Source: Eledone cirrhosa (taxonomy: Eukaryota). From it: a stretch of 64,000 nucleotides of DNA. Shown here piece by piece: positions 1 through 49,668 of the stretch. A model generated the notes under the pieces. It worked only from the letters and a program-made list of their open reading frames with translations. It searched no databases and was not told where the DNA came from. Position 1 is the first letter of the stretch; every line of letters begins with the position of its first letter. The stretch spans positions 304,172,001 through 304,236,000 of the forward strand of contig OZ024743.1 of assembly GCA_964016885.1 (NCBI GenBank), in the 5' to 3' direction. A program made the translations under genes and the position numbers.

Positions 1-850
1 TATCTTGTTCGAGGCTAAATCTTATATAGTTGGCCGCCGTCCATGCTATTTATGCCCGGAAGAAGCCATCAAGATTCGGTTCCGCAAAGAACATCTACTA
101 AATAAATAGAGCGAATTTGTGACTTCATGCAAGAACCGTACTTACAAAACATACCTCATCATCAGTCCTTCACACTATACATATATATATATATATATAT
201 ATATGGGGTAACAAATTATAGATATAGGTAATTCAACCCCATTAAGACAAGACAATCAGCAAAATTTTGACACACATTTGTCAAACCTCCCTTCACCATC
301 CACCCTTAGCCCTTGGGTCTCACACTAGTATCTCCCAATTAATCTCTAATTTATTGCTTTTTCTTTTATCTGTCACTACCTCAGACTTTCCACACGTATC
401 TATGTATGTTTCGAATATGACTTTTCATGTTAGCAATAAACCCACCACAGAATCCTTATACGGACAGTTACTCACCACCACCATTATCATATTCTGTACT
501 CATACACTCTCACTTATCATTATTTCTTTACATGTCTATTATTTTTCCATTTTCTTACGTTGTTACTCTATCTTTTTCTTATCTTTTACTTTTTACATTT
601 GTAACTTCTTTACCTATTTATCATATATATTTTATTATTGATGTTATTGTTTTGATTATAAGCTATTTCTCTATATATATCTTGGCTTGTATGAATTATT
701 TTTGTATTCTCAGGATTTGATCAGAGATAAATAAGTTAATGGAGATCGAGTGACGCAACTTCGAGCGATTACCTGATCAATGAAACAATTGTTAATACCT
801 GAAATAAAGCACCTTGTTGTACAGTCAGCCTTGTTACTCTTCATTCTTTC
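1..850 (+). mobile_element. 3' remnant of a Penelope-like element (GIY-YIG C-terminus, 3' UTR, hammerhead)
   Basis: Frame 2 of 2-150 reads ILFEAKSYIVGRRPCYLCPEEAIKIRFRKEHLLNK*SEFVTSCKNR, matching the CxLC..E...LN...C end of other PLE endonucleases in the window; AATAAA at ~803; ends at (TA)n. Confidence 0.75.
704..798 (+). ncRNA. Type I hammerhead, degenerate core, long helix II
   Basis: GTATT-CTCAGGA-T-TTGATCAG...CTGATCAA-T-GAA-ACAATTGT-T-AATAC; helix I GTATT/AATAC, palindromic helix III; core has C in place of G5. Confidence 0.6.
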
Positions 851-880
851 ACTATATATATATATATATATATATATATA

Positions 881-1043
881 TATAATCAAGGTTCAGCAAA
901 TAAGAAAGAGTTTTAAAATAATTTTTTAAAAATGCACTGTACCAGCTATGGTTGCCTTTACGGTAAAGTTAACCATAGAAGGTACAGTGAATTTTTAAAA
1001 ATTTATTTTAAAACTGTTTCTTATTTGCTAAACCTTAATTATA
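881..1043. repeat. Imperfect ~160-bp palindrome (fold-back) next to (TA)n
   Basis: tataatcaaggttcagcaaataagaaa...cactgtacc pairs with ggtacagtg...tttcttatttgctaaaccttaattata; centre ~962. Confidence 0.8.
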
Positions 1044-1204
1044 TATGTTCTGGCTCGTTAATTTATTAACCTGCCATAGAACCACATTGGCATATGGTTG
1101 GATAATACATGTGTCCCTATATGTATTTTGTTGTGTAGGGATATATACTTTATTAATATTATATATATATATATATATATATATATATATATATATATAT
1201 ATAT

Positions 1205-1478
1205 ATGTATACACGGGTGTGTATGATTGTATATAGAGGATTATATTAATAAAAGGAATTCCAACTTTGTCTGATTTCAGCTGTTAAAAATTGCAAACTT
1301 GACTGACACCACAAAATACGAACCTGAAGATTGCGAAAGCATTAAGGTACTTGTTCAATTAACACTTAACATTTAACATTCTACCATACTATTTCATTCT
1401 AATACCATTATAATTTTAAAGGATTGTAAATAAAACGATTAAATCAGACAAAGTTGGAATTCCTTTTATTAATATATA
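1205..1478 (+). mobile_element. PLE terminal (pLTR-like) fragment with inverted 5' piece
   Basis: 1241-1277 is the reverse complement of 1441-1478; homologous to 22365-22610; contains an HHR motif. Confidence 0.6.
1320..1356 (+). ncRNA. Minimal type I hammerhead (degenerate)
   Basis: GAAC-CTGAAGA-TTGC-GAAA-GCAT-TAAG-GTAC-TT-GTTC; with the 22421-22458 copy gives consensus GAAC CTGAAGA ATGC GAAA GCAT GAA AGTACT T GTTC. Confidence 0.55.
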
Positions 1479-1709
1479 TATATATATACGAGGTAACAAA
1501 TAATAGTTAAATGCAGTCACTTAGGTATAGTCCAGTTATGGTATTCCAGGTAGTGGATGATATCAAGGCTTGGCTTCGTTTGACTAAAAAGGCGTGTTCA
1601 TAGTGATGCTCCGGGTATGCTGTAATTCCTATGTTGTAAACACTTGGAGTAATAATAAATCAGGAAAGAAGGTTGACATGGTTTGCTATACAAAAAAGGT
1701 TTTTAATCT

Positions 1710-1822
1710 CATAGCTGACAATTGTTTCTCTGGGCTGGTAGGTCTAGAGATCGCTATTCGCTTATTTTCACGTTACTCGATCGCCAATACAAAATTATAA
1801 CCAGTCAGTTCTTCGGAGCATG
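1710..1822 (-). ncRNA. Type I hammerhead of PLE-A pLTR with ~80-nt helix II
   Basis: Minus strand: CAT-GCT-CCGAAGA-A-CTG.CTGGT...ACCAG..CAG-A-GAA-ACAATTGT-C-AGC.ATG; GUC cleavage triplet; U4C core variant. Confidence 0.75.
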
Positions 1823-46723: not shown

Positions 46724-46785
46724 TTTTGTCTGAAGAGGGCATACCATATTTTTAATATGATATCCCTGAAATATATATAATGAAA
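46724..46785 (+). ncRNA. Type I hammerhead (PLE-F)
   Basis: TTTTGT-CTGAAGA-GGG..CATATT..AATATG..CCT-GAA-ATATATAT-A-ATGAAA. Confidence 0.75.
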
Positions 46786-48370
46786 TAAATATGGTTTTAT
46801 AAATGTAATTTCCATTTGTTTAATATCGTAAAATACTCCAAAACCTGTTGAGTGCTTTTATATCAGTTATAAAATATTTACTCGTTGTAACCCAACATTT
46901 TAAATAAAACTTTTACATATATATATATATATATATATATATATTTATATATATCACTTTGTGAGACACGCAAGGTTCTGATACCATGTGCGTTATTGTA
47001 TATACGCACACTATTCATATATTGAAATATATATCACAGCATTATTATTAAAATACTTGAATATCTGAAACTACTTCGCTTTTCCTTATTCGATATTTAC
47101 TCCGTCACTCCTATGTGGAATAAGTACGTTGAGTGCTTGAATTGAATTGCATCAATGTTTACCCTAAGAATTTAGCTCCAATTAGTTGAGCGCTGTATGA
47201 TGTAACCGATATAGTGGTGAAGAGAGGAACCAGCCACCAGCTACACAAGGATATTCCCTATACCATGGGGATGGAAATTCATGATACTGGACGGACATAA
47301 TAATAACTGTCGGCAGGATAAATACGCGGAAACAAAAACACCGATAAACCCCTATTTTCCTGCAGCAAATCGCATTTGAACAGAAGGCCTCCAAATTCAA
47401 TCTATATATGGACAAATTGACAATCATATTAATCAGTATCTCCTATTTCATTTTGCATGTGTGAACTGTATGAATTCGTTATATTTATTAGTTTTTCTCT
47501 TTTGTGTACATGATATCTGTGTTTTTTCAGTTTTGTTCCATGTGATGGAAATTCTAACTTATGTACCCGACTACCTACTACCTTTCATACTGTAATTTAC
47601 CCTCTGTTCTACTATACGGTACTTTCGTTCAGTATGTAGATAGTACCGTACTTTCTTCTTACTTAAACATCTCTCTACGTAGTAGATAGTATAAGTGAAT
47701 ATATTATTTACTCTCTCCAATCTATATGTTTTTACTCATCTCAATCTAAATTCTGACTTGAACATTTTTTAATTTTTAATTATCAATTTTTAATTCCTGA
47801 TTTCTAATTTTTAATATTTGATTTTCAATTTTTAATTTTTAATTGTAATTTCCAACTCTCATTCATAACTTCCACTGTGAAACCATGATACCTAGAATTA
47901 AGTATATTTTCTCTTGGAGGTTAATGGTCAGTTATGCTGTCCATGTTTAATGAGGGTAGTAATGAGACATATTGATACTCACACGCTCCCATCCCCCCTG
48001 GCTTTCGGCTGACTGCCACAGACGGGGTAGGTAGCAGTAAGCTATATATAAAAGGCCTGAATGGGTCATTGTCTGGGTAAGGGGGGGAGGAACTGACTAA
48101 GTGAATTTCGTTGAAATCTGCGGTAGCTAATGGTCAACTTCCTTCGGACCTGTGCCTGCGCAGACCGGTGGAGGTGAATTGGTACTCACAAGGGAACGGA
48201 TGAAGAACCTGAAAGCACACACTTCGTCTGTTCCCATGTCGATTCAACTTGAATTGCCTCGGAAACATTACCTTATTATGTAACAAGGTATCTGACGATG
48301 TCGCGGCACTGCCGCCTCGGAACAGTGTGGCTACTGTCGCCATTGAAATATATATCACAGCATGATTATT

Positions 48371-48764
48371 AAAACGGAGAATTGGCAGTATCGGTGGAGC
48401 GTCGGACGCCATGCTTTCCAGCATAGTTACGTCCCTTTACGATCTGAGTTCAAATCCCGCCGAGGTTGACTTAGCCTTTCATCCTTACGAGGTCGATAAA
48501 ATAAAGTACCAGTAATGAAAAGTGGGTAATTGCTGGCCTTGTGCCTAAAGTAGAAACAATTATTATTAAAACGGTGGATTGGCAGTATCGGTAGGGGTCG
48601 GACGCCATGCTTTCCAGCATAGATACGTCCCTTTACGATCTGAGTTCAAATCCCGCCAAGGTTGACTTTGCCTTTCATCCTTACGGGGTCGATAAAATAA
48701 AGTACCAGTAATACACTGGGTAATTGCTGGCCTTGTGCCTAACGTAGAAACAATTATTATTAAA
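48371..48764 (+). mobile_element. Head-to-tail dimer of tRNA-derived SINE
   Basis: Two ~197-bp units, each with TGGCAGTATCGG (box A) and GAGTTCAAATCC (box B); flanked by ATTATTAAAA; empty paralogous site at ~47020-47090. Confidence 0.88.
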
Positions 48765-49228
48765 AGACTTGAACATCTGAAACTACTTCGATTTTCCTTA
48801 TATATATATATATATATATATATATATATATATATATATATATATATATATATAAATGTTTACATATATATATACATACACATACATATACGTGTTTTGC
48901 AACTGGTCACTTTTTGGCTCAATGAAAAATTAATAAATTAAACAATCAGAGCTATATATCATAAAAACATGTCTATAGAACCACAAGATAAAATATATAC
49001 TATTTCCTCTCCCAATTAGCATAATTAACTATATAAAAAATCGAATAGACCAGGCTATACGAATGAGGCTTCTATGAAGGAATCTCCAACAAATAACCAA
49101 AACTAGCGCTTCGCGTCGGCCGTAGTGGAATATTTATCGAATATTTCGACAGCGTAATCGCCTAGATACAGTCAACTAAGCAGAATTAGGTTTAAAATAA
49201 ACTAGGAGAAAATAGAATACACTTAAAT

Positions 49229-49316
49229 ACCTCTACCATGGTTTCGTCCGTGTTTTGAGTTATCCAATAATTATGTAATAATTATATAAACTCGAGCGCC
49301 GGATTCTTCAGGAAGC
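49229..49316 (-). ncRNA. Type I hammerhead with long helix II
   Basis: Reverse complement of 49581-49668. Confidence 0.85.
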
Positions 49317-49580
49317 TCGCTCATATCTAGATATTAAATTTTCAAAAACGATCGCGCCAAGAACTCATTTCAAAATGACTAAAAATCGTGACGTAGTCAC
49401 TGTCAAGTTGGAATGGGTGTGGTAGTTGCTTACGACTGGTGGCATTTTTGCTAGAAAGCACAGCACAATACAGCCAAATTTGTATCTCAACCTAGTGAGA
49501 GATTATTACATATAAAAGTTTACATATATATACATCTTGGCGCGATCGTTCTGGAAAATTTAAAGTCTAGATATGAGCGA

Positions 49581-49668
49581 GCTTCCTGAAGAATCCGGCG
49601 CTCGAGTTTATATAATTATTACATAATTATTGGATAACTCAAAACACGGACGAAACCATGGTAGAGGT
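49581..49668 (+). ncRNA. Type I hammerhead with long helix II
   Basis: GCTTC-CTGAAGA-A-TCCG..GAGTT..ATAATTAT-TAC-ATAATTAT..AACTC..CGGA-C-GAA-ACCATGGT-A-GAGGT; GUA site. Confidence 0.85.

Follow-up and report, generated by a model that had tools for sequence, protein, structure and literature searches.

The closest described relatives of the ribozymes considered here are the hammerhead ribozymes (HHRs) of Penelope-like elements (PLEs), for which cleavage as dimers through helix III has been proposed (PMC4209133, PMC6765202). The published minimal-HHR descriptor admits a stem II of 3 to 7 bp and a loop 2 of 3 to 10 nucleotides (nt), so that its core boxes are no more than 26 nt apart (PMC4209133, Fig. 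S7). Among PLEs, the Hydra clade is defined by RWK and DKT motifs, a CxCX5C linker, and CxxC/CxH features (section 11 of PMC8557442), and the 26 Hydra-clade rows in File S2 of that study (Craig et al. 2021) hold, by a hand count, no more than 26 nt between the boxes. Here, we analyzed a 64,000-nt stretch of the Eledone cirrhosa genome (contig OZ024743.1, positions 304,172,001 to 304,236,000; hereafter the window, with coordinates counted from its first letter), in which an initial annotation had pointed out hammerheads with large structured inserts in helix II. We found that these predicted long-helix-II HHRs belong to a ribozyme and to elements already known, of which they are a variant that tends to escape detection, not one new class. 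With a probability of roughly 0.55, we read the HHRs of the window as type I ribozymes of the pseudo-long terminal repeats (pLTRs) of Hydra-clade PLEs and of their derivatives devoid of open reading frames (ORFs), the long helix II being a lineage-specific outgrowth of loop II. The surprise is only moderate, since the chemistry and the host elements are of known kinds. Inserts in stem II are also common in engineered hammerheads.

The window was searched with a type I descriptor that leaves the length of helix II free, and the descriptor was then relaxed to admit one core substitution or U3-A8. All motifs named in the initial annotation were recovered at their coordinates with unrestricted helix II; each has the 5′ core box and GAAA, a helix I, a helix III that is palindromic, and a cleavage site of the NUH form, and the annotated spacing of about 50 to 80 nt between the boxes proved to be 51 to 81 nt. 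The relaxed descriptor yielded 30 matches, and 21 of them carry 40 to 100 nt between the core boxes. By comparison, 60 block-wise dinucleotide shuffles gave a mean of 0.25 and a maximum of 2 such matches; this control is generous because the descriptor was widened after the candidates had been viewed, yet the gap is large. The long matches comprise 14 copies in a tandem array, the inverted pair 49234/49586, two copies in the element PLE-A, the 704 motif, one motif in PLE-B (41677), and one at 38518. These motifs allow the three helices to pair up around the core, weakly so in 38518. The other nine matches have 13 to 14 nt (four) or 28 to 31 nt (five) between the boxes. Taken over the window, the helix II regions measure 13, 14, 28 to 31, 47, 51, 59, 66, 74, and 81 nt, a series that therefore does not divide into two classes.

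Standard models miss the long-helix-II motifs, as had been suspected from the sequence. At gathering score, Rfam gave no hammerhead match in the window; 49580-49668 reached 14.1 bits on RF00163 against a threshold of 34, and a targeted Rfam scan of the array unit gave no hammerhead match at E values up to 10. The miss is not specific to the inserts, since short HHRs fail the gathering score too: a short control at 56584-56655 scored 20.2 bits against a threshold of 52. This control has an extended helix I and a bulge, aligns end to end with Rfam HH9, and is of the canonical loop-contact type. When reimplemented, the published minimal-HHR descriptor returned no match in its original form, 4 once helix III could be palindromic, and 25 when the limit on loop 2 was raised to 100 nt, and 21 of these 25 exact-core matches require a loop 2 longer than 10 nt. 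Because the longest published Hydra entry (26 nt) coincides with the limit of the descriptor, the supposedly short helix II of PLE hammerheads may in part be a product of the search pattern. In several PLEs of the window, helix II is two- to threefold longer than this pattern permits, and such RNAs are therefore overlooked. Counts of hammerheads and retrozymes in similar genomes, as well as claims that an element "lacks" a hammerhead, may need to be redone.

The exact CUGANGA...GAAA...UH core in type I order, which had been ascribed to all of the named motifs, is found among the long HHRs only in the 14 array copies and in the 49234/49586 pair, whereas 704 reads CUCAGGA and both PLE-A copies read CCGAAGA. 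The array, on the forward strand, consists of a first block at 9490..12212 with a unit of ~574 bp and 5 HHR copies and a second block at 16188..21078 with 9 HHR copies that ends in (TA)n. Its unit HHR (9507..9588, +) has an intact CUGAUGA core, a 51-nt helix II region, and a GUU site after 9583, and helix II is predicted to form 6 bp, a 7×7 internal loop, 8 bp, and a 7-nt loop. The 14 HHRs lie in units of 552 to 582 bp, their copies are identical over 111 nt, and no ORF of at least 150 amino acids was found in the array. The array thus fits a working definition of non-long-terminal-repeat retrozymes (bioRxiv 10.64898/2026.07.22.740005), which asks for two or more units in tandem that lack ORFs and have one type I HHR apiece, while it lacks the short helix II and the loop 1-loop 2 contact nucleotides of canonical retrozymes; we name it only retrozyme-like because its helix II region is 51 nt long. 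The region also contains a 6.7-kb tandem duplication (5512-12212 and 12210-18910, 99.9% identity) that carries PLE-A pieces and the array and whose junction falls in a dispersed repeat, pointing to a very recent event or an assembly artifact. For this reason, the 14 array copies are not independent.

The second intact family is the 49-kb inverted pair. The 49586 HHR (49581..49668, +) has an intact CUGAAGA core, a 59-nt helix II region, and a GUA site after 49663; its predicted helix II comprises 4 bp, a 6×6 loop, 5 bp, a 3×5 loop, and 8 bp. The 49234 HHR (49229..49316, −) is its inverted copy, with the same 59-nt region. Both lie in a head-to-head element (48953-49944) that adjoins (TA)n and carries no ORF. 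Profile comparison with nhmmer tied neither this element nor the array to any ORF in the window.

PLE-A (1481..5010, −) is a Hydra-clade element by its features, with a frameshifted ORF for a reverse transcriptase (RT) and a GIY-YIG domain; further copies lie at 5015-6548 (−), 6550-9290 (+), and 13248-15988 (+). Both of its long HHRs are on the reverse strand and have a U4C core and an 81-nt helix II region. The one in the 3′ pLTR (1710..1822) has a GUC site at 1717, and the base of its helix II is partly decayed; the one in the upstream pLTR (5243..5363, helix II region 5265-5345) has its GUC site at 5253. Folding predicts a 9×2 internal loop in helix II of PLE-A. The 704 motif (704..798, +), which resembles a type I HHR, has a G5C core, a 66-nt helix II region (716-781) with an 8-bp basal stem and no confidently predicted distal fold, and a GUU site after 793. 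It is probably dead as a ribozyme, given a core change that we take to be inactivating, and is classed as hammerhead derived only.

The motif lies in a 5′-truncated element (204..850, +) between (TA)n tracts. In its 3′ part, this element shares homology with the 3′ end of PLE-A, through the ribozyme as well as the sequence on either side (alignment z of 6.5; nhmmer E values of 6e-8 and 4e-5), so 704 and PLE-A cannot count as unrelated elements. Since the two are collinear through both flanks and identical in helix III, the four elements of the initial annotation reduce to three families. The stretch 204-330 might be the decayed end of an endonuclease, the best of 21 pairwise comparisons giving P = 0.026.

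Two further long-helix-II families had been overlooked, bringing the number to five. The HHR at the 3′ end of PLE-B (41673..41773, −; 41677-41769 in the relaxed scan) is a U3-A8 core variant with a 74-nt helix II region, predicted to be an interrupted rod, and a GUA site at 41677; an inverted PLE-B copy near 45050-45140 has lost GAAA. The 38518 motif (38514..38587, −; scan match at 38518-38583) has a U3 core (C3U), a 47-nt region, and a weak basal stem and is, from its sequence, probably decayed. The core changes in the long motifs are thus G5C in 704, U4C in PLE-A, U3-A8 in PLE-B, and C3U in 38518. Shorter motifs, likewise missed by the initial annotation, include the PLE-D family HHR (46722..46787, +), with a helix II region of 28 to 31 nt, copies at 46503, 60057, and 62121, and a diverged copy at 23332 showing compensatory changes, and the short-helix control HHR (56596..56638, +), with a 14-nt helix II and others at 27244, 30650, and 56019.

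The sequence features of the hosts place PLE-A, PLE-B, and PLE-D in the Hydra clade. The PLE-A protein contains RWK, DKT in place of DKG, the CxCX5C linker, and CxxC and CxH (around E and N), and PLE-B carries DKT, its RWK region not being seen. Both have a C-terminal GIY-YIG domain with the CxCX5C linker, with CxxC and CxH, and without CCHH, as judged by eye in ORFs 8127-8705 and 42343-42978. Their likeness to Hydra-1_Amil and Hydra-1_Obim was also judged by eye, and both are inserted at (TA)n. PLE-B, PLE-C, and PLE-D are relatives of PLE-A. An RT tree was built from the window, fetched-locus, and related sequences (45 rows, rooted at the midpoint, with one duplicate left out), and in this tree PLE-A and PLE-B are sisters (support of 100/98), with an RT identity of 65%. 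Despite this, their inserts are unrelated (P = 0.2), and so are their core variants.

The inserts share neither a sequence nor a shape across unrelated elements, which speaks against the single recurring class that had been proposed. A shared motif was sought by aligning 28 insert pairs; 704/PLE-A gave the only long alignment (P = 0.006, uncorrected), next to two short matches of 9 to 14 nt at P values of 0.014 and 0.017, and the idea of a shared motif was dropped. Likewise, the architecture described as a stem, a big internal loop, and a second stem holds for the array (7×7) and 49586 (6×6), the only two families to share a shape, while PLE-A, 704, and PLE-B differ from it. Folding of six inserts gave energies lower than those of shuffled sequences in five cases (z of −2.3 to −4.1), the exception being 704 (z of −1.5).

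Comparison of diverged copies located the conserved part of the helix. The diverged PLE-D copy (23332) aligns with the others without gaps and differs at 17 of 31 insert positions versus 8 of 53 flank positions. All seven basal pairs are kept (null mean of 3.3, P = 0.004), three of the five distal pairs are broken, and five two-sided changes are spread over the 12 pairs. Between 704 and PLE-A, the seven core-adjacent pairs of helices I and II show three two-sided changes and none broken; the two also have a distal 5-bp helix in common. These data indicated that the base of helix II stays paired next to the core as the sequence drifts, which fits a scaffold conserved in shape only.

On the reading given at the outset, the long helix II would have grown family by family from loop II under selection on core-proximal pairing alone, and each family would have its own insert because nothing keeps the distal part from growing or being replaced. 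Intact copies would cut the element RNA at the NUH site (after 9583, after 49663, and at the equivalents), either by dimerizing through helix III, which is palindromic, or with the help of the element's protein. Cleavage of array transcripts would release 574-nt monomers able to circularize, perhaps to be copied by the PLE enzyme (as outlined in PMC7761336). The internal loop of the array and of 49586 may, in addition, have come to serve helix I as a docking site formed by base pairing.

Several observations weigh against this outgrowth reading. The strongest covariation comes from the 31-nt PLE-D family, with a single diverged copy, and not from the HHRs of 50 to 80 nt. In the upper stem of 704/PLE-A, three more compensatory changes appear only in a structure-guided register, and two of the four pairs are broken in the ungapped one, whereas the array gives no covariation because its 14 HHR copies are identical. 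Moreover, the hammerhead fold is near the lowest in energy for the array only (helix I and II probability of 0.99 to 1.0) and lies 5 to 8 kcal/mol above the lowest for 704, 1717, 49586, PLE-B, and 38518, although these energies leave out helix III and the core, and one short control likewise shows a gap of 8.5. The distal stems fold strongly (z of about −3 to −4), which suggests that they are not wholly neutral, and the self-cleavage of intact copies is itself a prediction from sequence.

Other explanations of the inserts were considered. The insert might be bound by a protein, either the PLE reverse transcriptase or one of the host, that acts as a folding chaperone or in template choice, an idea that also figured in the initial annotation. 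It draws on the anole PLE hammerhead, which is described as cleaving only in the presence of the element's protein (PMC11167929), on the predicted misfolding of several window HHRs when unaided, and on the distal 5-bp helix kept in 704 and PLE-A. A site shared between families did not emerge, as only 704/PLE-A gave a long insert alignment; the inserts of the sisters PLE-A and PLE-B are unrelated, the PLE-D insert diverges more than three times faster than its flanks, and Hydra elements elsewhere suffice with 11 to 31 nt. We therefore regard a protein site as unlikely. It appears quite improbable that the inserts are DNA-level sequence, such as internal promoter pieces or products of replication slippage, in dead or dying ribozymes whose structure is incidental. 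Such decay would account for the core changes in 704, PLE-A, PLE-B, and 38518, which make up four of the six types of long motif, for the second PLE-B copy without GAAA, and for the fact that all ORFs are broken, and pLTRs have been reported to bear promoters (PMC6765202). Yet the two-sided compensatory changes and the folding z-scores point to selection on RNA structure, U3-A8 is a published natural core variant (PMC4209133), and U4C is reported to leave a viroid infectious (PMC3088659).

A further idea complements the outgrowth reading and concerns the suggestion that the insert supplies a tertiary contact. In the array and in 49586, the strand immediately upstream of helix I could pair with the 5′ side of the internal loop in helix II, holding helices I and II parallel. 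The candidate arms lie 5′ of helix I at 9498..9504 (+; complementary to 9527-9533, 7 bp) and at 49574..49579 (+; complementary to 49599-49604, 6 bp), the last pair being G-U in each, and both are in one register, with a 2-nt linker ahead of helix I and a start 1 nt past the basal stem. Such a pseudoknot would replace the usual noncanonical loop 1-loop 2 contact and give fast cleavage. At fixed geometry, the P values were 0.005 to 0.006 for the array and 0.006 to 0.012 for 49586 (20,000 random or shuffled flanks); for the loop sets of both, the own flank was the best partner among nine flanks, and these two families are the ones with intact cores. Since base-paired contacts between stems I and II are common in other hammerheads, the idea is plausible: about 40% of surveyed hammerheads were predicted to use a stem I-II pseudoknot, and pseudoknot mutations lowered the rate 20- to >100-fold (Perreault et al., PMC3088659).

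On the other hand, the arms were noticed by eye ahead of testing, which makes the P values post hoc, and with free positions P was only 0.02 to 0.04 (3,000 draws). The flank of 49586 pairs with the unrelated 23332 loops at −8.3, close to its own −9.0, and in a second register it can form a hairpin that would be inactive and is 7 kcal/mol more stable than the nested hammerhead fold; in both arms, the last G-U pair competes with the adjoining stem, and the pseudoknot is without covariation within families. The complementarity is confined to two of the seven families tested: PLE-A and PLE-D gave no flank-loop signal, and 704, PLE-B, and 38518 gave P values of 0.04 to 0.24 (about 0.1 for the four long non-discovery families combined by hand). 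A match between the flank of PLE-A and the 8-nt apical loop (P = 0.09 to 0.22) was not counted. As for the 3′ flank, that of the array was not the best partner of its own helix II loops, and that of 49586 was the best in its column at −5.2, a figure with no null comparison behind it. A tertiary contact thus has a candidate in two families, and it is a tentative proposal that some animal PLE-derived HHRs swapped the loop contact for a pseudoknot of 5 to 7 bp between an internal loop and the helix I flank. If true, this design would mark an overlooked group of retrozymes, invisible to descriptors with a short loop 2. The array and 49586 motifs are small enough to serve as constructs for testing how PLE hammerheads that lack the usual loop contact cleave at useful rates.

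The window is AT-rich animal DNA (GC content of 27 to 45% per 2 kb) with many microsatellites and is dense in PLE pieces, both tandem and head to head. Pfam named 2 of 10 ORF pieces, neither of them of the Hydra type, and no transfer RNA (tRNA) genes were called in the window. A dispersed repeat of ~190 bp resembling a short interspersed nuclear element occurs at 5414-5601, 32887-33068, 34898-35057, 48362-48765, and 52580-52764; its copies are 69 to 92% identical, one is located inside a PLE-A pLTR, and no tRNA was called in them. PLEs of other clades, none assigned a hammerhead, lie at 24198-26488, 53240-55599, and 39670-40810; among them, one has an IVYIGET endonuclease and one is Penelope/Poseidon-like by eye. 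Two stretches (26990-27035 and 27780-27815) looked by eye like decayed short HHRs and were rejected by the scans. A short repeat family (9292-9487, 15990-16185, 23702-23897, and 29306-29453) has GAAA and a palindrome without the 5′ core box and is possibly a decayed hammerhead.

When set beside tabulated Hydra-clade HHRs (PMC8557442), those of the window share the type I order, the position near the 3′ end, a palindromic helix III of 2 to 4 bp, a frequent mismatch at the helix II foot, a frequent U at the cleavage site, and the (TA)n targets. Features that had seemed unusual are thus normal in this clade. By a hand count of the Hydra rows in File S2, 15 of 26 have an unpaired base at the helix II foot and 10 of 26 have U at position 17. 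The difference is in length: beyond the short HHRs, those of the window span 28 to 81 nt, against a table maximum of 26 nt. In an outside control of 14 Hydra-type RT loci, 29 of 33 HHR matches had an exact core and spans of 11 to 31 nt; the four set aside (27, 60, 129, and 179 nt) have a changed core and no C15.2-G16.2 pair, and counting them would lessen the contrast with the window. The RTs of these loci are separated from those of the window by a supported split in the tree, and nhmmer found no relative of the window's long HHRs in them. A long helix II thus looks enriched in the lineage of the window, in a small sample from few sources. The 14 loci come from microbial genome assemblies with contigs that hold Hydra-type PLEs and many hammerheads; judging by their sequence, these contigs are most likely contamination from host animals.

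The architecture has a precedent, since PLE-X1_sMoe of Selaginella moellendorffii is tabulated with its boxes ~54 nt apart; a stem of 9 bp carries a loop of 35 nt, within which a further stem can be made out by eye, and its entry is flagged "deviates from canonical structure" (PMC8557442, File S2). It resembles the window HHRs in its long helix II and differs in being a single case from a plant, in an endonuclease-less, ribosomal DNA-targeting element of another clade. In searches of literature titles, none was found to treat long-helix-II PLE HHRs as a type, with Lunse et al. 2017 and Arkhipova et al. 2017 outside the scope of these searches.

The Naiad elements in the same supplement were also compared. 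Eight rows are labeled "HHR_half_core"; in Naiad_Ovul, the sole entry examined, GAAA stands ahead of CUGAUGA, so this entry is not the long-helix-II variant. By eye, the 3′ end of Naiad_Ovul begins the motif with the cleavage site, followed by GAAA and then CUGAUGA; helix I has 6 bp, helix III has 5 bp, and helix II has only ~2 bp. This order recalls the noncircular type SGC (PMC10085705) and could touch the claim that Naiads lack hammerheads. Some Naiads carry selenocysteine insertion sequence (SECIS) elements (PMC8557442). A SECIS reading of the inserts was rejected, since Rfam gave no match at gathering score, no SECIS among the 150 of 193 matches listed at E values up to 5, and no SECIS in two targeted scans, and the hosts are of the Hydra type.

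Compared with the minimal PLE HHRs of Cervera and de la Pena (2014, PMC4209133), those of the window have in common the pLTR location, the palindromic helix III, the proposal of dimer cleavage, and U3-A8. The minimal ones are described with a helix II of 3 to 8 bp, a loop of 3 to 10 nt, and a conserved G10.1-C11.1 pair, whereas the window HHRs show a mismatch at 10.1-11.1, a longer helix III, and a multistem helix II. The array resembles the metazoan non-long-terminal-repeat retrozymes in its ORF-less tandem units with <45% GC and a type I HHR each; for those retrozymes, a pLTR origin has been proposed and unit lengths of 51 to 972 bp are given (PMC7229834; bioRxiv 10.64898/2026.07.22.740005). 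Canonical retrozymes combine a short helix II with conserved loop 1-loop 2 nucleotides; in the array, helix II measures 51 nt instead, and the contact may be one of base pairs. Finally, Watson-Crick pairing between stems I and II is described as stabilizing the active fold in all three hammerhead types by Perreault et al. (2011, PMC3088659), a study that excluded repetitive type I motifs from part of its analysis. The pseudoknots reported there engage terminal loops or tails and short stems, whereas in the window the candidate partner is the internal loop of a long helix II.

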